From IMG/VR virus record IMGVR_UViG_3300025941_000001, positions 29,825 through 93,824 of that record: a stretch of DNA of 64,000 nt; one strand, 5' to 3'. Origin of the DNA: a virus. Shown in pieces: positions 8,830 through 62,635 of this stretch. Each line of letters starts with the position of its first letter. Within the stretch, counting starts at the first letter, position 1. The notes under the pieces are model-generated. The model was not told the origin of the DNA. It made no database searches and worked only from the letters and a program-made list of their open reading frames with translations. Both the position numbers and the translations under genes were made by a program.

Positions 8830-9549
8830 TCAGTAGTTGACCGCTGCTTTGCGGGGGAGGAACGCGGGAGCCGGAGTGTGGCCCCGGCCGTTTCGACCGT
8901 TGTCCCGCTTGCGGTCCATCAGCGTCGCATCGACCGGGTTCTGAGCCATGTTCGGCTCAAAGCGGCTGCCGGTGATCCGCTCGCGCAGAACCTCTTGCTG
9001 ACGCTCAAGATGCTGCTTGATGTTGGCGGCGACCGAGATCGCCGGATACTTCGAAGCGTAGAGCGTGAGCGCCCGGTTCAACCGAGCCTCGGCCGCGACG
9101 AGCAAACGCTGCGCGTCCGCGATCTTGTTCTTCGCATCAGTGACGCCAGCCTCGGCGTCATCGACACGGCCCTTGGCGATAAGTCGGAGCCGTTCGTATT
9201 CGTCCTTTGCGTCGAGCGGATCATCGCGGTCTTCATCCGGGTCCGGAGGTCCCATGATCTTCGCGGCTACAACTGCCGCCGGAGACACGCCGTTGGCCGC
9301 AGCCTCGGCATTGATGGCATCGAGCCCGCCGGTTTCATCGCCGGGTTGTTCGTCCTCGGCGACACTATCCGAGGTCTTGCGCGCGAAGCCCGGGAGGGCG
9401 TCGTTGATCTGCGCTCGGGTGATGTCCTTGTCGTTGCAGAGCCGTTGCACTTCGGCGACGAGCGGAGCGCCGTCATCAGTCCAGAGCTTGTCGTCCTTGT
9501 GATCGAAAGATTGCAGGGCCTCTGCGATAGCTGCTTTGGGGGTCGTCAT
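8830..9549 (-). CDS. Hypothetical protein downstream of the capsid gene
   Basis: 239 aa, N-terminal DDKLWTDDGAP motif, coiled-coil region. Confidence 0.65.
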   Translation of the reverse strand: MTTPKAAIAEALQSFDHKDDKLWTDDGAPLVAEVQRLCNDKDITRAQINDALPGFARKTSDSVAEDEQPGDETGGLDAINAEAAANGVSPAAVVAAKIMGPPDPDEDRDDPLDAKDEYERLRLIAKGRVDDAEAGVTDAKNKIADAQRLLVAAEARLNRALTLYASKYPAISVAANIKQHLERQQEVLRERITGSRFEPNMAQNPVDATLMDRKRDNGRNGRGHTPAPAFLPRKAAVNY

Positions 9550-11773: not shown

Positions 11774-12217
11774 TTAGTCTGCGCCGGAGCCGTCAGGCAG
11801 CGTCACAACCCAGCTTGTGATCGCAACAGTAGCGTGCTGCACGATGGAAGTCGTGTTGAGGATCATGTCGGCGGCAGAGGTGCCGACCGTACCCTGCACG
11901 ATGCAGACGCCCGCACTGTCGTAAGCGCGGAAGTAGCCTGCGGTGCCGGTCGCCGCCGCATCGGTGTCCGACGTGATGGCATTGGCCGTAGCAGTCGCGA
12001 GGCCATTCGAACCCGGATCAGTTGAGGCGGGAAACGCCGTTGTGCTGAGCGTGAGCGTCGAAAGCAGCGTGCCGCTGTCGGCGGTCTCGCACGTTGCTGG
12101 CATGGAGCCCGAGAAGATTTTGATGTGACCGGGGGTGCCGCCCACATTCAACTTCGCCAGCAACGCGTCCAGCGCAGCGCGAGCCGAAAGCATAGAGACC
12201 ATAGGATTAGCAGCCAT
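11774..12217 (-). CDS. Virion structural protein (fibre/decoration-associated)
   Basis: 147 aa, Thr/Ala-rich, IKIFSG...GTLL...GTAGYFR...QGTVG pattern common in phage fibre modules. Confidence 0.65.
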   Translation of the reverse strand: MAANPMVSMLSARAALDALLAKLNVGGTPGHIKIFSGSMPATCETADSGTLLSTLTLSTTAFPASTDPGSNGLATATANAITSDTDAAATGTAGYFRAYDSAGVCIVQGTVGTSAADMILNTTSIVQHATVAITSWVVTLPDGSGAD

Positions 12218-42000: not shown

Positions 42001-43610
42001 TGTTCTGTATCGACGGCGAGATCAATTGGGGACACAAGTGATATGAGCACGAACATCCACGTTAACTCCATCACTGCTACCATCACGGATACCGGCTACC
42101 CTGTCTGGGTCAATCTCACGCACGAGACGGCGGGCTGCTCGCACTTCTTTGGCACGATGAGCCATCGAGAGCTTGTCGATCTCAAGTTCGCAGTCGAGCG
42201 CTCAATCGCGGCTGCACGCGAGGCGTTGCCCGAGGGTCACAAACACGAGGTTGATTGACATGCGCGAAGTGAACATGGGCGACGGAAAGATACTGCACAT
42301 GCCTGACACTGAGCAGCGCGAGGCGACGCCGATCTTCGTCCCGTATTGTCGTTGCCACGTGCGATTGGGTAACGACTACTACTTCTTGCCTCGCAACTCT
42401 TGCCTGTTCGGCACATGCGACAATCCCGAAGGTCGGCAGCCATGATCCTGCGCATCATATTCATAACCGTCTTCATCCTTGGCATCGGTGGGCTCGAAGC
42501 TCAGCTTCGAAACATCCACGAGGACCTCGTGCGATTGGAGCAACGGCGATGAACCTGTCCAGCGCAGAACTGATGGTCGAGTACCGTGCGAAGCTCAAGA
42601 CGCTGCGCAAGGCGCGCGAGGCATGCGACCCCGGGCACAACACGGTCAGCGTCAAGACGTGGTATCACGGCGAAGAGTTCGATCTCGCTGCGTTGCTATC
42701 AAAGGCGAGCGTGCGCGCTCAGCTTGCCATCATGCTCGACCGTGAGATCGCCGCGCTCACGCGAGATATCGAAGCGCACGGCGTCAACGTGGATGAATGA
42801 TCATGGGCGTGCAGGATGACTACAACGAGGCGTGGGAGGCTGGCGAGCGCGCCGGTCGGCGTGACGAGATCGAACGGTGCGCGATGCTGTGCACGATGCG
42901 CGGCGACATCAGCCGGGAGACGGCGAAGCGTCTGCGCGCCGAGGGCTCGTACACCACGCGCGCCATCTGGCCCCCGTTCAAGAAGTCAACCCACGTGCAT
43001 CCGAAGTGGGAGAAGAACGCGGAATGGTTTGATCTCGTCGCCAAGGCGTTCGATACTCTGGCGCGCGGCGTTCGTCTGGGATGGGACCCGCGCAAGCTGG
43101 AGCCCAAGACCGACGAGGTCGTCGATCTCCAAGTGTTCATCCCGTGTCAGCACTGCATCGAGCCGATGGACTGTGCATCGGTGCAGACGTGCGAGCACGG
43201 TGTCCCTGACCGTATGGTGACGCATGTCCGCACCAAGACAAAGTGAAGCCGCCCGGCTTCTCACGATCTCGCCTAGCCTGCCTGACCGCAACGTGGCTGC
43301 GATGATCGCGGCCATGATGCTTGAGATTGACCGTCAGCCCTATTGGTTCTCAATCAACCATGACACTCGCCCGCCCGCGTGCCGAGCCTGTCGGCTCGAC
43401 TACGATTGGAATTTGAAGGGTCGCGTCGGCATAAAGACGATGGACCGAGAACGAGCCCGGCGATGGATCACGCATGCGCTGTTGCTCCAGTATCAGGTAT
43501 CGCGTGAAGGCGGAAAGCCATTGACATCGTCGCTGGAGATTGCTAGACGGCGAGCAGCCAACCATCAACGTCCCCCATCGGAGAACACGGATGACGATAT
43601 TCCCTTCTGA
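39034..43610 (+). other. Rightward run of about 17 small hypothetical genes
   Basis: Coupled ORFs including 39034-39300, 39305-39601, 39598-40278, 40275-40655, 40989-41204, 42549-42800, 42797-43246, 43224-43610. Confidence 0.6.
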
Positions 43611-44286
43611 CGGTCGCCCGCCCCGCGTTGATCGAACCGATCTCTCGCCCAACGCGAAGCGCGTGGAGGTGTCGGACCCGACCCTCGCTGCGTTCCACGC
43701 GCCGAGAGACGAGCCTGTGCCGACGTATGACCACGTGATGATCGACATCGAGACTTTGTCCCTGTCGAAGCATAACGCGCTGATCCTGTCGGTTGGCATG
43801 GTCGAGTTCACGCCCGAACCACTGGAAGCGCCGAGATTTGGAAACCGCGCGCTCATCATCCCCAACATCGAGCAGCAACTATTGCTCGGTCGCGAGGTCA
43901 GCAAGGGCACGCAAAAGTTCTGGCGTGAGCAGAAGCCCGAGGCCTCGGCGCACTGGGCAGTCTATGGCGGCGAGCGTGCGTCCATCCGAACGATGTGCAA
44001 GCTAATCAAGACGTTCTGCGCGAACTCGTCGCGCGTGTGGGCCAACGGCACGCAATTCGATCTGACCAATCTCGAAGTGATCAACGAGCAACTCGGCGCT
44101 GAGAGCGTCGGCGATCTCTGGCACTATCAGGCCCCGCGTGACATGCGGACCTTCTGTCGCGAGAACCCAACAACCCGGCTCGTCCCTATCGGGGACGCGC
44201 TCGACATTCCGGGAGTACCTCATGAGCCAGTCTACGACTGCATCTCCCAAGCGTGGAAAGTCTGGAGCCACTGGCCCCAAGCCTAA
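43591..44286 (+). CDS. DEDDh 3'-5' exonuclease (ExoVIII N-terminal/RNase AS-like)
   Basis: HVMIDIETL, ILSVG, VWANGTQFD, RDMRT, HEPVYDC motifs. Confidence 0.85.
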   Translation: MTIFPSDGRPPRVDRTDLSPNAKRVEVSDPTLAAFHAPRDEPVPTYDHVMIDIETLSLSKHNALILSVGMVEFTPEPLEAPRFGNRALIIPNIEQQLLLGREVSKGTQKFWREQKPEASAHWAVYGGERASIRTMCKLIKTFCANSSRVWANGTQFDLTNLEVINEQLGAESVGDLWHYQAPRDMRTFCRENPTTRLVPIGDALDIPGVPHEPVYDCISQAWKVWSHWPQA

Positions 44287-44460: not shown

Positions 44461-46248
44461 ATGACCACGTTCCGTGAGAAGTCAGATATCGGCAGCGTGA
44501 AGATCAGCCTAGGCCCGGTGTTCTCTGTCAATCCGCAGTGCGTGGAAAGGATCGTGACATTGCCCGAGAGCATCGGCGACCCCACATGGATCAATGTCCA
44601 TTGCTATGGTGACATCGTGCTCCAAACTGAGCTTGAGAGCCCGCAGACGTGCAAGGACCTCGTCGCGGAGTTCATCGCAGCCAACCCGGCTATCCGAGTT
44701 GAAGAGTTCAAATAGATGACCCGCGTTCCCGCCAAGGACTTCGAGCCCGCTCGGCTCATACAGGACTACATCGACGAAGAGCGAGCCCGATGCGCTGCTC
44801 TCGTGCGAGCGTATCGCCCTTGGCATAGCCGCGAGTTCCTGTCATACTGCATCGAGAACTCGGTGCAGCTTGCCGACCGCGACGCGGCCCGGAAACGGTT
44901 CGATGAGTTGAAGACCGACGATGACGACGACATAGAGGACCTAATGTGATGCGTGGACATGGCCCAGTGACGACCAACGAACGACAGGCGGCCCGGCCGG
45001 AATGGCTTGAGCCTATCCGTGATGGGATGAACAAGCACCGCCGGTTCATCTGGATCAAACGGGGAGGCACGGCGAGTTCCTCGGGCTCCGGCCCGCAGGG
45101 GCGCAAAGCCACTCGCCGAGCCCTTCTATCGCGTGCCATGGCCGAGCGCGCCGGAGTGGCGCAGGCCGTCACCGCGCGACAGGCGGCCCGCGTGGCCGAG
45201 AAGGCGAGGCCTCTGGCGATCATCTGGCCGGACCGGGCGAAGGAGGGCTGGCCCCATGCGTAAGTTAAGCGAACCGACGCTGCAATGGTTCGAAAGCTAC
45301 GAGGTCCGCGAGGGCAAGGACGGCAAGCCGGGCATCTATATCCGGGACTACAACTGCCGACTGGCCACATTCAACGCCAACACGGCGGCGCTCCAGACGC
45401 GGCTCAAGCTTCTCTTCGAGCGTGCCAATGCGCCCAAGATCAAACCGAAACGCAAACGCAAGCCGCCCCCGATCAATGAGGCGTGGGGACCCGGCTCGGG
45501 GAATTGGTGATCCATGGCAGACGTGATTGAGATGACAGGTCGTCAGCGGCGCATGATCCGCAAGGCGACCGAGGACTACGTCGCCACTCGTGAAGAGCGC
45601 GAGCGGCTGATGCGCGCCATCATCGAATTGTATTGGGCGCATCGCGATGGCAAATAGCAGCGTCATTTGGTGCGACCGAGGTTGGATGCCGTATCACTAC
45701 GGCTTCTGTCCCAACAAGCGTTCGTGGGACGACGAGATGAAGCGTCTCGCCATCCCCGAGCGGGTGCCGTATCCCGAACTCTACGACGGCCGGTGCACGC
45801 ACTTCACCAACACTCATGATCACAACGCGTGCTCTATCGTGACGATCAGGCCCGGCAATAAATCCGCGCTCGAAGTGATCAGCATGTTGACGCACGAGGC
45901 CGTGCACGTTTGGCAGGCGATGCGCGATGCCATCGGCGAGACGCATCCGTCGAGCGAGTTCGAAGCGTATTCCATCCAAGCCATCTCGAAGAACCTGATC
46001 AAGGCCTACGAACAGGGCCGGTGCAAATTGGTTTTGAGAGGCAAGAAAGGTCGGGGTTTCTGATGTCTGCGCCATCCTCTCTTGAGTGTCAGTGCCCGAT
46101 CTCCTACACAGTGAAGTCGCTCCCGGATGGACGCCGGGTCGCTCAGTGGGATCAAGAGCCGCCGAGCCTGATGCAGATGTGCTTTGGCCGGTGCCAGCGC
46201 TGCGGCCTCCCCTATCATACCGAGTTCTCGACCGACGAGCCCGTGTGA
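44461..46248 (+). other. Small hypothetical genes
   Basis: 44461-44715, 44716-44949, 44946-45263, 45647-46063 (HEAVH zincin-like motif). Confidence 0.55.
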
Positions 46249-46610
46249 TGTATCGCATCTGGCTTGATACCGCGTGCACGGTTTGCGCGCTCGTGTCCTA
46301 TGAGGACTACGAGTGGGCGCTCCAGTGGAAATGGCAAATCACGTGGGACCGGCACAAACGTAAGGCCTACGCCACGCGCTCGGCGAGCACGCACGGCGGG
46401 CGTCGGATCAAATACTATCTGCACAAGGAAGTGCTCAAGCGGTCGATGAAGCTCCCGCCCTCGGCCAAGCATACCATGGGCGACCACGGCGACGGTAACA
46501 GCCTGAATTGTGAGCGGTGGAACCTTGACTGGGCGACGCCCTCCCAGAACCGCAGAACAGCCCGCCCATGCGCCCGGCCGGAGCCGGTCCCGGAAGACAT
46601 CCCCTTTTAA
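46248..46610 (+). CDS. HNH endonuclease-like protein
   Basis: ALVSYEDY...YLHKEV...DHGDGNSLNCERWNL...TPSQN; ends EDIPF. Confidence 0.75.
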   Translation: MYRIWLDTACTVCALVSYEDYEWALQWKWQITWDRHKRKAYATRSASTHGGRRIKYYLHKEVLKRSMKLPPSAKHTMGDHGDGNSLNCERWNLDWATPSQNRRTARPCARPEPVPEDIPF

Positions 46611-46645
46611 GCAAATCGCCCAGCGCTTGCGCGCCGGGCGAGATG
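46611..46645. terminator. Hairpin between the convergent HNH gene and tmRNA
   Basis: TCGCCCAGCGC/GCGCCGGGCGA stem. Confidence 0.55.
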
Positions 46646-46985
46646 AGGCCGTTCTGTTGCGAGGTGGCCCGGACCCCAGCCGGTTACGCCGCGAGGCGCA
46701 TTTCGACAGGGAAATTGTCGTTGTTTGCGACAGTTTCAGGGTGACCCGATAACGGCGGTATCATGCCGAGTTCACTCTACGACTTCCATTGGCGTCCATC
46801 GAGCCTATTTCGGCCCCATCAGAGACAGCGCGAGACCCTTCGTAGAGGCGTCGCGACTTGAGCGCACGGTATCCATACCGCTTCGCGCTGTCCGTGGTGG
46901 AGCCGCCGGGTACTGCCCCCGGGTCTGACCGCCTGACATCGTAACATTCAGAACCATCGCTCGCACTGGTCAACCACACGCTACC
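46646..46985 (-). ncRNA. ssrA: Permuted two-piece tmRNA (alphaproteobacterial type), tag ANNDNFPVEMRLAA*
   Basis: Acceptor piece ends GACCCGGGGGCAGTACCCGGCGGCTCCACCA (CCA end at 46895), then a 77-nt intervening segment. Coding piece starts GGGGCCGAAATAGG at 46817; tag frame 46728-46684. Outer ends are approximate. Confidence 0.92.
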
Positions 46986-47079
46986 CATCCTGTCCGCGTC
47001 GGCTCTGTGAACCGTCATTGACAGGCCAAAGCCTTGTCCGTTGCGTGCGAGCGTGACGAGAATAGCGCGTCTAATCTCG

Positions 47080-49428
47080 TCATGTCAAGGTGGGATCAGT
47101 AAATTCCTCTGACGCGTCGCCGCCGTCATCGTCTGGGATGATCGCTTCGAGCGGCTGATTTTTCCCGGCTTTGATCTTGTCGTCTTCATAGATTTTGCCT
47201 GCGCTCGCGCGTGGCATCGCCGTGAGGATGCCGCCGGAGCCGTTAATCGCTATGAGACGGGGACGCTTGCCGCTCGGCGTCAGACATTGTCCGAGGTCGG
47301 AACCGGATAGCTCAGTGAGCAAAAATTTCTTGATGGTGCTGTGAAGCCGGAAGCCCTTGGTCTCCAGCCTCTTCGGCAACATCAGGATCACGTCTTCGAC
47401 CGTGACGGCGCGAGCCGACAATGGCCACTCGCCGCGATTGTCATTGAGCCAATGCTCAAGATCGCCCATAGCCGCCCGCTTCATCCCGGCCTTCGCTTCG
47501 GTGCGAGGTGCCGGTTGCTGGCCGCTGTAGCCCGCGAGATCGCGATTGAGCAGCGAGTACATCACTGCGCCCATCGCGGCCGGGTCATCAAGTTTGGCGA
47601 ACAGCCGGTCGAAGTATCCACTGGCCGACTTGGCTCGCGCCTCTTCCTCGGTGCGGTCGGTGCGGATCACGAGGTATCGGCGGTCGGTGTTGTCGAGGTC
47701 GAGCGCGGCGTCGTCATTGGTGAATGCGAGCACGCCGAAACAGCTATCGACCATCATGCTGTCGATGCCTTTCTTCTCGACGTTGATGCGGTCCTCGGTG
47801 ATGATGTCGTGCAACGCCTCCTTGACCGCGCGCTTATCAGAGGCGCGCAACTCTTCGATCACGATGAGCTTGCACTGGAGCGCCCACGCATTGAACCGGC
47901 CCGAGAGGCCGTTCTGCGGAACGATGGAGACGTTCGCCGGATGCAGGATGCGCGACAGCACTCGACCGATGAAGCTCTTGCCCGTGCCGTTGACCTCGCC
48001 TTGGATAATCAGTGCGTGCTTCGGTTTCTTTTCGAGGTTCTGCAACAGCCAAGCCATCCAATTCAACAAATGGTTTCGGTAGGTCTCGTCAGGGAAAAGG
48101 TATTCGAGATGCTCATTCCACCACGTCAAGTCGCCTTCGGCAGCTTCGATGTCCGGCTGGCGATACAGATTGAAGGTCTGGCCGAACTCAAGCGACTGCG
48201 GCTGACCGGGCTTGAACCCGACGCGCAAGAACTGTTGAAGCCCGCCCTTCTTTTCGCGGAAGAGCTTGTCCGAGCCGCTGCCTGTCTTCGGCGCGAGGAT
48301 GCTGTTGAACGCGCTGTCGAACGACTTCACGTCCCAGACATCCCGGTCATTGTTATTGAGCGGGTCAGTTTTGCAGATGAACCGCTTCATGTTGATGATC
48401 CAAACCCACTGATCAATGATCTCGTTTTTGGTCTTCGGCCGACCCGGGTCGTCACCGCGCGACTTATCACGGGCACGAGCGGCGTCGCGCTCTTTCTTCT
48501 GCGCCTTGATCTTCTTTTTGCTGCCCATCGGCGTGATCGGTGGCGGGGGATCATCAGAGAAGTCAGCCTCGGCGGTTTTGCCGCCGACCTTCGAGAGGTT
48601 CGCGTAGGTGTAGGCTCCGGCCATCTTCTTTTCGAGGTCTTCCATGTCCCACGGCGGTTCGCATCGCGGGTTGAAATACTCGTTGAGAAGCTGTGCACCA
48701 AGCTGTTGCGAGATGCCGAGGTCCTTCAAGTAGTACGCGGCCTTGAGCAGCGCGAAGTCTCCGCCCGAGCCCTGAATTGAAGGCTCGGCATCGCTCTTCA
48801 AGAAGTCAATCGCGGTGTCGATGTTCGCTTGCTTGTCGAGTTCGACCACGACCTCGCCCGCGTCCGTGATGCGGGACTTGGTCTTCGCTGTTTTGATCGT
48901 GTCGTAAATCCATTCGGGGCAGCGAACCGCCTCGGCGTTGTTGCCGACGTAACTCGTGCCATCATCGAACGTGCAGCCGGGGATGAGCGTATAGTTCGGA
49001 CTGTCGATGTCTTTGCCGATGCCGTTCTCGCCCAGAGCCATGATGTGCTCGGGATGCGTGTCGTCGGCCCAACCTTCGTAGACCATGTGGAAGCCGCCGG
49101 ACGGCGTCGTGGTGCGCTCGGTCTCCGGCCAACCGTACATCAAGTCCAAATCATCATACGTGATCTGCCCGGTCTTGCCTTTGGCTGCGTTCGTGTCTAC
49201 GTCGGCGACGAGCAATTTGGATTTGCGATGCGCGACGCCCCAGTTACAGCCGGGCCACTGAGCCTCCCACGCGCGCAACTGCTCGGGGTCGTTGCTTGCG
49301 TCCTCAAGATTGTTCTTGATGGTCGGCGGAAACTTCGCGCCCGGCTTGATTGGAAACAAAAACCGACGCTGAAAATGTCGGTCAATGTAGTCCACGGCAA
49401 GGCTGAGAGTGCGTTGTCGAACTGGCAT
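47080..49428 (-). CDS. Bifunctional primase-polymerase fused to a DUF5906-type NTPase/helicase
   Basis: N-terminal LFPIKPGAKFP...NWGV...ADVD...TPSGGFH; Walker A GEVNGTGKS; IVIEE; DRRY. Start taken at MPVRQ (49428). Confidence 0.88.
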   Translation of the reverse strand: MPVRQRTLSLAVDYIDRHFQRRFLFPIKPGAKFPPTIKNNLEDASNDPEQLRAWEAQWPGCNWGVAHRKSKLLVADVDTNAAKGKTGQITYDDLDLMYGWPETERTTTPSGGFHMVYEGWADDTHPEHIMALGENGIGKDIDSPNYTLIPGCTFDDGTSYVGNNAEAVRCPEWIYDTIKTAKTKSRITDAGEVVVELDKQANIDTAIDFLKSDAEPSIQGSGGDFALLKAAYYLKDLGISQQLGAQLLNEYFNPRCEPPWDMEDLEKKMAGAYTYANLSKVGGKTAEADFSDDPPPPITPMGSKKKIKAQKKERDAARARDKSRGDDPGRPKTKNEIIDQWVWIINMKRFICKTDPLNNNDRDVWDVKSFDSAFNSILAPKTGSGSDKLFREKKGGLQQFLRVGFKPGQPQSLEFGQTFNLYRQPDIEAAEGDLTWWNEHLEYLFPDETYRNHLLNWMAWLLQNLEKKPKHALIIQGEVNGTGKSFIGRVLSRILHPANVSIVPQNGLSGRFNAWALQCKLIVIEELRASDKRAVKEALHDIITEDRINVEKKGIDSMMVDSCFGVLAFTNDDAALDLDNTDRRYLVIRTDRTEEEARAKSASGYFDRLFAKLDDPAAMGAVMYSLLNRDLAGYSGQQPAPRTEAKAGMKRAAMGDLEHWLNDNRGEWPLSARAVTVEDVILMLPKRLETKGFRLHSTIKKFLLTELSGSDLGQCLTPSGKRPRLIAINGSGGILTAMPRASAGKIYEDDKIKAGKNQPLEAIIPDDDGGDASEEFTDPTLT

Positions 49429-49625
49429 GTGGACCTTTCCGGGGCGGGGCGATGTGCGTCCTAGCACAATTTCGTTAACCAATGCAAGCCCTTTGAGGCC
49501 TCTTGACAATCGGGTACTAGATGCGGTAGGCCTCGACTTCGACTGTCGTCTAGGAGTAGGACACTCTGGCACCCCCAGAGAGACGGGAGGCGCGACCACT
49601 TCCCCGGTTGATCCAAGGGTTCTCG

Positions 49626-55384: not shown

Positions 55385-55537
55385 TGGCCACATTCATCGG
55401 GGCGATAGTGTGGGCGGTCGCGGTCTTCATCGTCGCCGGTCTTCTGTCGCTCCCAATCTCATGGCAACTCATCACGTTCGGCGTCGCGTGCAGCATGGTA
55501 AGCGACATGATCCGGGATGTGGTCAAAAAGGATTAAC

Positions 55538-56821
55538 ATGGCCCACGCAAAGCTTTCGCCCTCGGCCTCGCATCGGTGGATGAATTGTCCCGGCTCCATC
55601 GCCCTCATCGGCGATGATAGCTCGACGACAAATCAGGCGGCGATGCTCGGCACCGCCGCGCACAAGCTCATCGAAATCATGATCCAGAACGATCATCACG
55701 AGGCGCGCGAGTACCACGGCTCGACCTTCCTCGTGAAGGCGGACGGCGACGAAGAGACCGAGTATTATCCGCCCGGCACGCCCGCGCTCGACCCCGAGCA
55801 AGCGCGTCCGGGATGGTTCATGTTCATCGCCGACGAGAAGATGATAGAAGGCGTGCAGCAAACCATTGACGAGGTGGACCGGCTCAAGATGGAGATGTGC
55901 GAAGGGACGGAAGTCTTCTCCGAGCGCTATCTCGACGGCTCGTGGCTCGACGAACGTCTCGGCGGCACGGCCGACGTGACCTTGGTCGAGCCGTTCGGCT
56001 GGATCAACCTCGTCGATCACAAGAACGGCTATATCCTCGTCGAGGCCAAGGACAACGATCAGCTAAAGCAGTACGGTGTCTTTTTGTTGCACGAGCATCC
56101 CGACGCCGAGGGCGTCACGGTGACGATCTCGCAACCGAACGCGCCGCACGCCGAGGGGCTGATCCGCTCGGAACGCTTCACCGCTGATGAGTTGAAGCTC
56201 TACGAAATCCAGATGAAGCAAGCGGCCGAGGCAACCTCGTTGCCGAACGCCCCGCTGCGCGCTGGCGATTGGTGCCTTTGGTGCCCGGCCAAGACGCGGT
56301 GCAAGGCCTATGACGCAATGCTGCTCGAAGAGGCTGGCATCGACTTCGCCGAGGAAGAGCCGCCCGCGATGCTCCCGACGCCGGTCACGACCGCCGACCT
56401 CGCGCACAAGATGGAATGGGTCCCCGTGATCGAAGCGTGGATTGGCAACATCAAGGCCGACATCCAACGCGAGCTTGAGAACGGCAACGAGGTGCCCGGC
56501 TGGAAACTCGTGCGCGGTCGCTCGAAGCGCCGATGGATGAGCGAGGCCGCTGTCAAGGAAAAGCTGATCGACGAACTGGGTCTGGCCGAGGCCGATCTGC
56601 TCGTCGAGCCCAAGCTCAAGACGCCTGCGCAAATCGAGAAGCTCGGCGTCGGCAAGGAACAGCGGAAGGCGGTCAAGGCCGCCGTCAGTGAATTGGCGTT
56701 CATGCCCAACGGCGCGCTCGCCATCGCACCGTCGTATGATCCGCGCGAGGCCGCGAGCGCACTCGATGACGCGGCCAACGAGTTCATGACTGACGAGGAT
56801 GATGGGGATGACTTCTCATGA
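55538..56821 (+). CDS. DUF2800 Cas4-like PD-(D/E)XK nuclease
   Basis: HAKLSPSASHRWMNCPGS, GTAAH, GGTAD, VDHKNG, WCLWCPAKTRC, GWKLVRGRSKRRW. Confidence 0.9.
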   Translation: MAHAKLSPSASHRWMNCPGSIALIGDDSSTTNQAAMLGTAAHKLIEIMIQNDHHEAREYHGSTFLVKADGDEETEYYPPGTPALDPEQARPGWFMFIADEKMIEGVQQTIDEVDRLKMEMCEGTEVFSERYLDGSWLDERLGGTADVTLVEPFGWINLVDHKNGYILVEAKDNDQLKQYGVFLLHEHPDAEGVTVTISQPNAPHAEGLIRSERFTADELKLYEIQMKQAAEATSLPNAPLRAGDWCLWCPAKTRCKAYDAMLLEEAGIDFAEEEPPAMLPTPVTTADLAHKMEWVPVIEAWIGNIKADIQRELENGNEVPGWKLVRGRSKRRWMSEAAVKEKLIDELGLAEADLLVEPKLKTPAQIEKLGVGKEQRKAVKAAVSELAFMPNGALAIAPSYDPREAASALDDAANEFMTDEDDGDDFS

Positions 56822-57042
56822 TCACGCAAGCTGACATCGACCGCGATCTCGCGCACGCTCAGGAGAATGGTTTCTTCACCGACATGAAGCGGTGCACGGT
56901 CGCCGAGATCGTGCTCGACCTTCAAACATACTCGCAAACATGCGAGGATGAGCCCGACGAAGTCTTGACGCCGCTAGTGCAAGCGTGGTATGACGCCCAA
57001 CTCTTTGGGGATAGCCAAGCTGGTAAGGCGGCGGACTGTTAA
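56818..57042 (+). CDS. Hypothetical protein whose 3' end overlaps the tRNA
   Basis: ATGA-coupled to the nuclease; stop codon lies in the tRNA anticodon loop. Confidence 0.5.
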   Translation: MITQADIDRDLAHAQENGFFTDMKRCTVAEIVLDLQTYSQTCEDEPDEVLTPLVQAWYDAQLFGDSQAGKAADC

Positions 57043-57079
57043 TCCGTGATCGTAGGTTCGAACCCTACTCCCCGAGCCA
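57005..57079 (+). tRNA. tRNA-Asn(GTT)
   Basis: Acceptor stem TTGGGGA/TCCCCGA, D-arm, GCGGA-CTGTTAA-TCCGT anticodon arm, GTAGG-TTCGAAC-CCTAC T-arm, encoded CCA. Confidence 0.93.
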
Positions 57080-59738: not shown

Positions 59739-60082
59739 AACCATATTGACAGCCTTTTGAGACAGTGCTTTGTCATGGCATTCTGTCCCCTCTGGAAAGG
59801 TCCTTCAATGTCCCCAACCGAAACGAAGATTGAGCTTGTCACAGAGAGCATCGAGGCTCTCGTGCTCGCCGAGGTCATCGCTACCAACCCCGCGTGCTCC
59901 GAACACGAACGGCACATCGCCGTCAAGAATGTTCGCGACGCCCGCGAGTGCCTCTCGAAGGCGCTCAAGGAATTTCTGGCACCGACGCTGCGCGTCGTGC
60001 GAGTACAGGATCAGCGCATCGCTGGCGCTATCGAGCGCACGGTCACGCGCACCACGGTCGAAGATCGTCGGCCCAATCTCGC

Positions 60083-62635
60083 ATGATCACTCTGGATTTC
60101 GAAACCCGTAGCGCCGCCGACCTCATCAAGTGGGGACAGCGACGCTATGCGCTCGATACGAGCACGCAAGCTCTCTGCTTGGCGTGGACGTTCGATCAAG
60201 AGGACGAGGTCCATCTCTGGCACCGCGATCATCCATGGATTAAGAAGAGCCCACGCCCTGACCGGCTCATCGAACGCATTAGGAGTGGCGAGAAGGTCGA
60301 GGCCCACAACGCGGGTTTCGAGTTCAATATCTGGAATGAAACACTTCGCCGGGAGTTTCCTGAGTTCGACGTGGAGTTGACAGTCGATCAGATGCACTGT
60401 TCGGCGGCGAAGGCCTCATGTCTGTCTCTGCCCCGGGGACTGGAGGACGCCATTCGCGCGGTCGGCCTGCCTGATCACAAGATCGCGGACGGCAAGCGCC
60501 TGATCAACAAGCTGTCGAAGCCAATGCCTCGGCGGGCTGTTATTGAAGTGCCCGGCGATACGTTCCGCGAAGTGATGCGGTCCCAGATGAACGAACTCTG
60601 GGAGCCCGGCGAGTACGTCACTGAGCAAACTGTCTACGGCATCGCGGATGAAGTAGCTGACGAATACGGAGACAGCGCGCCGGTCGCAATCCGCGAGGCG
60701 GTCCGGAATGACTTTCATCGCGCGGTCAAGACTGGCGTCCTGACATTCGTCGAAGACGGTCTCTATCGCTGGACCGAAAAGCCGCCCAAACCGATCAAGC
60801 TGACCGGCGTCAAACAGGTTTCCAGCAAGAGCCCAATCGAGTTCTGCGAAGAGGAAGAAGAGCACCGCAAAAACTGGGCCTATTGCAAGGGCGACGTGAT
60901 CGCCGAGCGCGGCCTGTCCAACTTTTGCCCGGAGATGTCCGAGCAAGAGCGTCGATACTGGCTGATGGACTTCCGGATGAACCTCCGGGGCATCAAGCTC
61001 GACAAGAAGGCGGCCCGCGTCGCGCTCGACATGGCCGCGAAAGAAACCGACAGGCTCAACGGCGAGCTAAAAGACATCACTGGAGGCGTTGTCGAGAAGG
61101 GCTCCCAACGTGCCGTCCTGCTTAAATGGGCGAACGGGCGGCTCGTAGAACTCGGTCGTGACCCGCTTGAGAACACAAAGGCTGACACGCTTTCATTCGC
61201 GCTCGACGGCGTCCCGACCAAGGCTGGCGACGAGGCCTTCGAGGCGGCCGAAGATCGCATGAAAGAGGCGTGGGACGCTCTCGGCGAGGAAGGCGCGCGG
61301 GTCAACCGGGCGCTGCGCATATGCATGGAGGTGAACCGCTCGTCGGTCGCCAAGTACAAGCGCATGGTGCAGTCGGTCTGCCCGGACGGACGCCTGCACG
61401 ATATCATGCTCTACAACGGAGCCGACCGCACTGGACGGTGGTCCGGCAAGGGCGTGCAGCCCCACAACTTCGTTCGCGGCTACGGCGCGGGATACAAGGG
61501 CCTCACTTCGGACGGGCTCGACGAGATGGGCGACGCGTGGCGCGATATCATGTCGCTCGACCGCGAACTCGTCACGCTCCAGTGGGGCGAGCCCATGGTT
61601 GCTCTGGCCAAAGCCTGTCGCGGCGCGCTGATCGCGAGCCCGGGCAAAGAACTCTACGCGGCCGACTTCAACGCCATCGAAGCTCGCAAGCTCGCGTGGC
61701 TGTCGGGCTGTGCTGACATGCTCGCGATGTTCGTTCCGGGCAAAGATATTTACTGCGACATGGCATCCGCCATCTATGGTCGCACCATCACGAAAGCCGA
61801 CAAGTCGGAGCGTAACCTCGGCAAGAAAGCCATCCTCGGGCTGGGCTACGCGATGGGCTGGGAGAAATTCCAAGCGACCGTCTACATGGATGAAGGCATC
61901 TGGCTCGACGATGAGTTCTGTCAGATGGTGGTCCGCGTCTATCGCAAAGACAAGTACCCCGAGGTCCCGGCGCTCTGGCGCGCGACCGAGAAGGCGGCTA
62001 TCGCGGCTGTCCTCGAAGGCGGCGAGCACTATTGCGGCGGCGATGAGTTCGGCATCGGGGCCGTCTCCTACTTCATGAGCGATGACGGCAACTTCCTGCA
62101 TTGCCGTCTGCCCTCGGGTCGTCTGCTCGCGTATCTCTATCCGCGCGTCAACATGCGTGTCACTTATCGCTTCGCCGCGCTCAATGCTCGCGGTCGGCCG
62201 ACGACTGTCAACTTCCCGGCGAAGAAGAGCGTCGCCCAGCATCGTGTCCGCTGGCACGCCGAGAAGATGGCCGCCAAGCAGAACAAAACGCTTCTGCCTG
62301 ATCCGCCAGAGAGCTTCATCTCGCCGCACCTCTCGTTCATGGGCCGCGATACCTACACCAAGCAGTGGAAGCGCTGCGGCACGCACGGCGGCTCGCTCGT
62401 CGAGAACTACGATCAGGCATCGTCGCGTGATCTGCTCGCCGAGGCTATGCTGCGCGTCGATGAGTTGCCCGAGTTCGATCTGCTTTTGTCCATCCATGAC
62501 GAAGTGATCGCAGAAGCGGCCAAAGGCACTTGCAAAGTTCACGAGTTTGAGGCAATCATGTCCGAGGTGCCGGACTGGGCACCGAACATGCCCATCACAG
62601 CCGAAGGTTGGGTCGGACCAAGACTAAGAAAATAG
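60083..62635 (+). CDS. DNA polymerase, family A, with 3'-5' exonuclease
   Basis: LDFETRS, AHNAGFE, YCKGDV, TGRWSG, motif A ADFNAIEAR, motif B RNLGKKAILGLGY, motif C IHDEV; start MITLDFE at 60083. Confidence 0.95.
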   Translation: MITLDFETRSAADLIKWGQRRYALDTSTQALCLAWTFDQEDEVHLWHRDHPWIKKSPRPDRLIERIRSGEKVEAHNAGFEFNIWNETLRREFPEFDVELTVDQMHCSAAKASCLSLPRGLEDAIRAVGLPDHKIADGKRLINKLSKPMPRRAVIEVPGDTFREVMRSQMNELWEPGEYVTEQTVYGIADEVADEYGDSAPVAIREAVRNDFHRAVKTGVLTFVEDGLYRWTEKPPKPIKLTGVKQVSSKSPIEFCEEEEEHRKNWAYCKGDVIAERGLSNFCPEMSEQERRYWLMDFRMNLRGIKLDKKAARVALDMAAKETDRLNGELKDITGGVVEKGSQRAVLLKWANGRLVELGRDPLENTKADTLSFALDGVPTKAGDEAFEAAEDRMKEAWDALGEEGARVNRALRICMEVNRSSVAKYKRMVQSVCPDGRLHDIMLYNGADRTGRWSGKGVQPHNFVRGYGAGYKGLTSDGLDEMGDAWRDIMSLDRELVTLQWGEPMVALAKACRGALIASPGKELYAADFNAIEARKLAWLSGCADMLAMFVPGKDIYCDMASAIYGRTITKADKSERNLGKKAILGLGYAMGWEKFQATVYMDEGIWLDDEFCQMVVRVYRKDKYPEVPALWRATEKAAIAAVLEGGEHYCGGDEFGIGAVSYFMSDDGNFLHCRLPSGRLLAYLYPRVNMRVTYRFAALNARGRPTTVNFPAKKSVAQHRVRWHAEKMAAKQNKTLLPDPPESFISPHLSFMGRDTYTKQWKRCGTHGGSLVENYDQASSRDLLAEAMLRVDELPEFDLLLSIHDEVIAEAAKGTCKVHEFEAIMSEVPDWAPNMPITAEGWVGPRLRK

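Follow-up and report, generated by a model that had tools for sequence, protein, structure and literature searches.

A circularly permuted, two-piece tmRNA gene of the alphaproteobacterial type, with its own peptide tag, in a phage genome

Identification of the phage tmRNA

The window analysed here, a stretch of 64,000 nucleotides corresponding to bases 29825-93824 of the 93,824-bp IMG/VR virus record IMGVR_UViG_3300025941_000001, carries on its minus strand a phage-encoded, circularly permuted, two-piece transfer-messenger RNA (tmRNA) gene, or ssrA, of the alphaproteobacterial (alpha) type with its own peptide tag. This identity, which an earlier note had proposed from the sequence alone, is confirmed by two Rfam covariance models, both of which were matched by cmscan over their full length and well above their gathering scores: RF01849 (alpha_tmRNA), recommended in that note as a check, at 47015..46642 on the minus strand (116.7 bits versus a gathering score of 50, model positions 1-355 of 355, E 3.8e-31), and RF04321 (tmRNA_permuted) at 46955..46684 on the same strand (106.7 bits versus 47, model positions 1-213). 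The gene is the single tmRNA in the whole virus record and, as had been remarked, is missing from the track of open reading frames (ORFs), in which only spurious ORFs overlap it (46761-47018 on the minus strand and 46510-46752 on the plus strand). It very likely represents a working, phage-owned ssrA that acts in ribosome rescue together with SmpB, alanyl-tRNA synthetase (AlaRS) and ClpXP of the host. Hereafter, the tmRNA copy in the window is referred to as WIN, and the relatives of its phage are labelled G001-G004.

Architecture of the gene

The permuted order can be read directly on the minus strand, where the CCA-ending 3' half of the tRNA-like domain (TLD) lies 5' of its 5' half and an intervening segment (IVS) is found between the two. 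The succession of acceptor piece, IVS and coding piece is the same as in the two-piece ssrA type of Caulobacter crescentus (RF01849, RF04321; Keiler, Shapiro and Williams 2000, as cited in PMC9004378). The acceptor piece (46895..46955, minus strand), delimited by Rfam alignments, a helix listing and pair counts, comprises the 5' strands of helix P2, a T-arm (CCGGG/GGCAGUA/CCCGG) and, as read off the minus strand itself, CGGCUCC as the 3' strand of the acceptor stem (46905-46899), the discriminator A (46898) and an encoded CCA (46897-46895). The coding piece (46642..46817, minus strand) begins at G46817 with the acceptor 5' strand GGGGCCG and continues through a D-loop analogue (GAAAUAGG), the 3' strands of P2, pseudoknot 1 (PK1), the tag reading frame and a 3' pseudoknot. 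GGGGCCG and CGGCUCC form a 7-bp acceptor stem in which the G3.U pair is present, and the PK1 block (GGCAUGAUACCGCCGUUAUCGGGUCA, 46742..46767, minus strand) recurs unchanged in at least 120 alphaproteobacterial genomes and in eight viral contigs. The elements picked out in the earlier note, namely an acceptor piece ending in CCA at 46895, a self-pairing intervening segment and a coding piece starting from GGGGCCG at 46817 with a tag ending in AA, were all recovered in this reading. Upstream of the acceptor piece, the 5' leader of the precursor (46956..47058, minus strand) has GCTCGCAC...ACGGACAAGGCTTTGGCCT in common with G004 and contains a small hairpin directly before P2, and positions 1-60 of the Rfam model align here.

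The two-piece tmRNAs of alphaproteobacteria and WIN have in common a TLD that bears G3.U, a 3' pseudoknot, the helices of P2, the sequence of PK1 and a tag of the form ANDN...AA. WIN differs in being virus-borne, in a divergence of 23-27% from the nearest bacterial genes and in acceptor pair 5, which is flipped to C-G. Its IVS possesses its own conserved hairpin, and its CCA is fully encoded, in contrast to the CCACCT of many Bradyrhizobium genes. Many tmRNA genes of Bradyrhizobium and Nitrobacter read ...CUCCACCU, with the terminal A of CCA not encoded (alignment A1, columns ~120-131; L017, L084, L053 and others), while the full CCA is encoded in all four phage copies and in the Afipia and Tardiphaga genes.

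The gene constitutes an independent, conserved transcription unit of the phage lineage, since its own promoter and a terminator hairpin are kept among the relatives. The promoter-like element CTTGACA...CTATTCT, previously placed at approximately 47088-47058, corresponds to a sigma-70-type promoter, cCTTGACA-18-TATTCT, at 47059..47088 on the minus strand, with 10 of 12 consensus matches. The promoter scan is weak evidence by itself (one site found versus 0.4 expected in shuffles); the site is nonetheless conserved in three relatives, as a homologous CTTGACA-N17-TA(C/G/G)(G/G/T)CT precedes the tmRNA in G004, G003 and G001, with the surrounding sequence otherwise unconserved. In G001, this promoter comes after the terminator of the primase gene. 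A candidate promoter beginning TTCACA that directly precedes the Rfam match of WIN was rejected owing to its wrong spacing and degenerate sequence. At the other end, an intrinsic terminator (46606..46641, minus strand) consists of an 11-bp GC-rich stem with a GCAA loop followed by UUUGCUU, and a GC hairpin with a T-tract ends the gene in WIN, G003 and G004, the stem sequences being different. The tmRNA of the OM43 phage Melnitz is accompanied by a glutamine riboswitch (PMC9004378), whereas no riboswitch or other Rfam RNA was found attached to the window gene at E <= 1, the only matches being sub-threshold ones on the terminator hairpin.

The 77-nt IVS (46818..46894, minus strand) is predicted to fold (-34.0 kcal/mol) into an 11-bp outer stem, in which its ends pair (ACAGCGCGA...UCGCGCUGU), around three small hairpins, one of them the conserved GCGGUAUGGAUACCGUGC. 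It is homologous in WIN, G003 and G004 (77-79 nt), and comparing WIN with G003 reveals four compensatory pairs in the outer stem. An 18-nt hairpin, GCGGUAU(G/U)GAUACCGUGC, lies at 46863-46880 (minus strand), occurs once in the window and is also found in loci L135 and L137. This hairpin is the same in WIN and G003 and has one changed loop base in G004, whereas the mature RNAs are merely 70-83% identical; it could act in RNA processing, bind a protein or serve as an operator in the DNA. A stem-closed, multi-hairpin IVS of similar length (69-78 nt) occurs in Afipia, Tardiphaga and Nitrobacter genes, which indicates that the precursor design was inherited. A small ORF within the IVS was rejected, since its frames and peptides differ among WIN, G003 and G004 and it has no ribosome-binding site. 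When the IVS hairpin was used as a probe, three further viral contigs were returned that proved to be chance matches within coding sequence, without a tmRNA, and the probe otherwise recovered relatives already known.

Larger and smaller IVSs were observed in other viral copies. In G001 (IMGVR_UViG_3300050119_000050), the tmRNA has an IVS of ~500 nt that encloses a 133-aa LAGLIDADG homing-endonuclease ORF (L005:1636-2037, plus strand; Pfam LAGLIDADG_3 at 31 bits versus a cut-off of 22.5, LAGLIDADG_1 at 24.4 versus 23.1), and no group I intron was detected in this IVS. Homing endonuclease genes in tmRNA have been reported solely within T-loop group I introns (PMC11915505). An unrelated viral contig, G006 (IMGVR_UViG_3300016667_000583), has a 774-nt permuted tmRNA gene whose IVS encloses a 144-aa ORF of an HNH-type homing endonuclease (L138:1665-2099, plus strand; phrog_655 at 2.3e-14). 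Another unrelated viral contig of 63 kb, G005 (IMGVR_UViG_3300020577_004322), carries a compact permuted tmRNA of 216 nt (L136:1501-1716, minus strand; alpha model positions 40-274) that has almost no IVS by a rough parse and a very long branch (0.57); its candidate tag, VNDNVPFAERRVAA, comes from a rough regex parse only.

Conservation and selection in related phages

Relatives were found through a primase search together with a search using the 26-nt PK1 block. The same arrangement of replication genes, primase, tmRNA, convergent 174-aa gene and exonuclease is present in three IMG/VR contigs, G001 (61 kb), G003 (84 kb) and G004 (14.5 kb), whose primases are 55-62% identical in amino acids to that of the window and whose tmRNAs score 102.6, 135.3 and 98.1 bits, respectively. 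G002, with ~90% or more identity in tblastx translated segments, is uninformative on the tmRNA because the contig ends inside the primase.

Base pairing was examined in a 17-sequence alignment comprising copies from three of the phages, one further viral copy and 13 Nitrobacteraceae-type bacterial genes, onto which the Rfam helices were mapped. Standard pairs occupy 86.4% of cells, versus 32-49% with the partners slid by 1-3 columns; both sides have changed in 16 of the 40 pairs, and the observed values were reached by none of 500 shuffles. The acceptor helix is paired in 100% of cells, with G3.U in all 17 sequences, and the only two double changes in this stem both occur in phage copies (G5-C to C5-G in WIN and C6-G to U6-A in G004). 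P2a reads GGUUC/GAACU in WIN and G003 versus GGCGC/GUGCU in bacteria, and the closing pair of the T-stem is flipped in G003. As many as 40 of 41 modelled pairs are formed in WIN, a count made favourable by a register derived from WIN. Given that the relatives keep the place of the gene, its promoter, compensatory stem changes and an invariant G3.U, the tmRNA is under selection and is neither an att relic nor contamination.

These data also bear on the view that the gene is a neutral passenger or a decaying, host-derived copy without function for the phage, which seems very unlikely. Lower model scores and longer branches than those of bacterial genes would fit decay, as would the 5 of 41 modelled pairs that are unformed in G004 in the WIN register. 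However, the same locus has been kept in four phages despite the divergence of their primases, compensated changes have occurred in the acceptor, T and P2 stems as well as in the outer stem of the IVS, and G3.U, CCA, tag frame, promoter and terminator are all conserved.

It is extremely improbable that the gene represents a phage attachment site (attP), the relic of an integration into the ssrA of a host, or host DNA in a chimeric contig. Integration is commonly directed at tmRNA genes, and mobile elements carry fragments of them (PMC4383910, PMC9004378). The ssrA-targeting elements and prophages of the Islander database (PMC4383910) resemble the window phage in bearing ssrA sequence on a mobile element; theirs, however, is a 3' fragment beside an integrase, whereas the window gene is whole, with its own promoter and terminator, and differs by 23-27% from every bacterial tmRNA compared. 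In the complete genome, neither a tyrosine recombinase (best PF00589 match 12 bits versus a cut-off of 27.1) nor a serine recombinase (no PF00239 match) was found, which bears out both the earlier observation of a mid-genome position without a nearby integrase and the argument drawn from it against an att site. A chimera is excluded by the direct terminal repeat (DTR) ends of the genome and by the gene order that three independent viral contigs share with it.

Peptide tag

The tag reading frame (46684..46728, minus strand) extends from the resume codon GCA (46728-46726) to the stop codon TAA (46686-46684) and encodes ANNDNFPVEMRLAA*. The tags of G004, G003 and G001 are AHNDNFPAEMRLAA, ANDNNVAVEALALAA and VNDNVPMSEMALAA, respectively, the last with a GUG resume codon; the phage tags vary mid-tag, with NDN and (L/V)AA kept in all four. 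Nitrobacteraceae tags follow the pattern ANDNV(A/R/S)(L/M)N(E/D)VRLAA (e.g., ANDNVALNEVRLAA), with a C-terminal RLAA as in WIN. In comparison with alphaproteobacterial tags, the window tag contains one additional N, with FPVEM in its middle, and no bacterial tag compared is identical to it. Two parts of an ssrA tag are recognised for proteolysis, the C-terminal LAA by ClpX and the N-terminal portion by the adaptor SspB. Because NDN and the C-terminal LAA are retained, the WIN tag should direct its products to the ordinary route of proteolysis.

A different role has to be weighed at this point, in which the RNA of the phage vies with the host tmRNA for SmpB, or re-routes tagged proteins by means of its divergent tag, and thereby alters the choice of proteins that are destroyed. 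Such modulation would agree with a tag unlike every bacterial tag compared and an RNA ~25% diverged from the nearest bacterial tmRNA, and a TLD-only phage tmRNA of the DS6A type has been reported to resemble tmRNA inhibitors (PMC4131195). It is nevertheless distinctly unlikely, as a full mRNA-like domain, a resume codon and a stop codon are all present, and the RLAA end typical of Nitrobacteraceae, together with NDN in all four phages, argues for ordinary degradation.

Proposed function in ribosome rescue

As a working ssrA, the gene would be transcribed early by host RNA polymerase into a precursor of ~440 nt that runs from CTTGACA-18-TATTCT to the terminator hairpin. Closed by its stem, the 77-nt IVS would present its ends in a pre-tRNA-like manner, with host RNase P cutting before G46817 and host 3' processing exposing the encoded CCA at 46895, and the resulting acceptor piece (at least 61 nt) and coding piece (~176 nt) would be held together by the 7-bp acceptor stem and helix P2. 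The RNA may then be charged by host AlaRS through G3.U70 and brought by SmpB and EF-Tu of the host to ribosomes that have stalled on mRNA that is broken or lacks a stop codon; since no SmpB was found in the complete phage genome, host SmpB would be required. Translation is predicted to resume at GCA, appending (A)ANNDNFPVEMRLAA and leaving a peptide end ...AANNDNFPVEMRLAA, and the NDN motif and C-terminal LAA would deliver the tagged protein to SspB/ClpXP of the host. For the phage, the advantage may lie in additional ribosome-rescue capacity while it degrades or overloads host mRNA. Ribosome rescue, already favoured in the earlier note, is the best-supported reading that we infer, with charging and tagging elements intact and compensatory changes spread across four diverged phages.

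Several points weigh against it. Four nucleotides ahead of the resume codon, WIN has U (CUGUC before GCA) where E. coli has A, so that a faithful start is not guaranteed. Pairs were counted on a structure that came from WIN itself and favours WIN, and the PK1 block is invariant by ascertainment, the loci having been selected with it. Moreover, the phage copies score 98-135 bits on the alpha model versus 148-184 for Nitrobacteraceae genes and lie on long branches, which could reflect relaxed constraint.

A more specific proposal is counter-defence, in which the tmRNA mainly rescues ribosomes stalled by mRNA or tRNA nucleases of abortive infection, or replaces an inactivated host tmRNA. It fits everything that supports general ribosome rescue; in addition, the host-type promoter and the place among early or replication genes would make the tmRNA present early, and the seven tRNA genes of the phage belong to a class often read as translation insurance. 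However, the sequence offers no link to a defence system, no recognisable anti-defence gene adjoins the tmRNA, and general relief of ribosome stalling accounts for the data equally well, so that counter-defence as the main role is possible but rather unlikely. A related and somewhat doubtful extension, to which we give little weight, is that a soil- or freshwater-type alphaproteobacterial phage lineage has kept and reshaped the tmRNA as a dedicated infection tool instead of a mere spare copy, for example for countering ribosome-stalling host systems or with the IVS hairpin as a second functional RNA or regulatory site. With no phage tmRNA having an experimentally shown role yet, well-defined and conserved examples such as the present one provide raw material.

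Origin of the tmRNA and likely host

At least 120 alphaproteobacterial loci contain the 26-mer, a set biased by the probe, and among these the closest bacterial matches to the mature pieces of WIN are Bradyrhizobium, Afipia and Tardiphaga genes, with 73-77% identity; G004, a phage copy, matches the same pieces at 81-86%. Of 400 evenly sampled alphaproteobacterial genomes, none was nearer than Bradyrhizobium sp. NFR13, and all others aligned solely over universal blocks of ~30 nt; two unpublished genomes (G250 and G050) form part of this sample and are the basis for no claim. A maximum-likelihood tree groups WIN with G004 (Shimodaira-Hasegawa-like approximate likelihood ratio test, SH-aLRT, 99) and G001 with G003 (83), all on long branches, and the phage tmRNAs join the Nitrobacteraceae clade (86) outside its crown group (93). 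This topology fits an old capture from a host of the Bradyrhizobium family, followed by faster evolution in phages, and suggests that the present host may be near Nitrobacteraceae.

Relation to known phage tmRNAs and their detection

Phage tmRNAs were first catalogued in mycobacteriophages (PMC4131195). A survey of 2022 recorded tmRNA in 402 of 18,146 phage genomes, where two-piece forms made up 53 of 133 unique sequences, 50 of those 53 being from marine or aquatic phages (PMC9004378), and a tmRNA database of 2025 holds 79 phage sequences (PMC11915505). Two-piece phage tmRNAs having thus been published (PMC9004378), the window gene is not a new kind. It is like those of Melnitz and of pelagimyophages such as Mosig (PMC9004378) in being a complete, alpha-type permuted ssrA with a host-type early promoter in a phage without an integrase, and, as among the marine myophages, the tmRNA occurs in several members of a phage group, though not necessarily in every one. 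On the other hand, the window phage belongs to an unrelated lineage, and its tmRNA is related to Nitrobacteraceae rather than SAR11. One-piece tmRNAs are known from mycobacteriophages (among them Bxz1 and Catera), from Bacillus phage G and, as a TLD-only form, from DS6A (PMC4131195). They likewise represent a phage-borne ssrA without a phage SmpB and with a presumed role in infection, but are of the standard, non-permuted form and belong to phages of Gram-positive or actinobacterial hosts, and DS6A lacks the tag ORF that the window gene has. The finding therefore adds a lineage beyond marine myophages with a two-piece tmRNA, one that traces to Bradyrhizobium-family bacteria. The tmRNA is otherwise an ordinary, standard-looking one of the alpha type, and its function is made no more testable by the finding.

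ARAGORN, which the earlier note had suggested as another check, did not detect the window gene, giving no tmRNA there at default settings or with -ps95. A call with -ps90 at genome c[74963,75395], with the tag ARLAVLALADLVAFEPLQRRFA, was disregarded as different and implausible. Among permuted tmRNAs detected with Rfam, ARAGORN (-m) found one of the seven viral copies tested, versus seven of nine bacterial ones; the viral loci concerned are that in the window (46642-47015), L137, L005, L136, L138 and L134, and the missed bacterial genes are those of Afipia (L071) and Bradyrhizobium RDT10 (L097). Since six of seven viral copies were missed here, ARAGORN-based counts of phage two-piece tmRNAs are likely too low, and the published counts are probably underestimates. 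The covariance models RF01849 and RF04321 recover tmRNAs that ARAGORN misses.

Genomic context

The record has 99-bp direct terminal repeats, an estimated completeness of 100% and a G+C content of 61%, and probably represents a ~94-kb, presumably virulent tailed phage of an alphaproteobacterium. No DNA-level match was found by blastn among 50,697 phage records, either with the tmRNA in 'distant' mode at E <= 1e-5 or with positions 40-60 kb of the window in 'near' mode, and an exact 22-mer from the 5' end of the coding piece had no matches in IMG/VR. The tmRNA sits in a replication module. Directly upstream is a Prim-Pol/DUF5906 primase-helicase (47080..49599, minus strand; PF09250 at 63.3 bits, PF19263 at 68.7 bits, phrog_1156 at 2.4e-45), and downstream lies the convergent 174-aa gene (46086..46610, plus strand), which has weak similarity to HNH endonucleases (phrog_959, 5e-5) and no Pfam match; its protein is among the best conserved in the region, with 68-72% amino acid identity in G001 and G003. 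Exonucleases (43540-44286 and 55517-56821) and a family A DNA polymerase (59894-62635) are encoded nearby. The seven tRNA genes of the phage (Pro, Gln, Thr, Ile, Ala, Gly and Asn) do not adjoin the tmRNA; tRNA-Asn(GUU) at 57005-57079 (plus strand) is the sole one in the window, the others being located at genome positions 8907-9418 and 12098-12186. By its DNA polymerase, the nearest isolate is Roseobacter phage RDJL3, with 44% amino acid identity.

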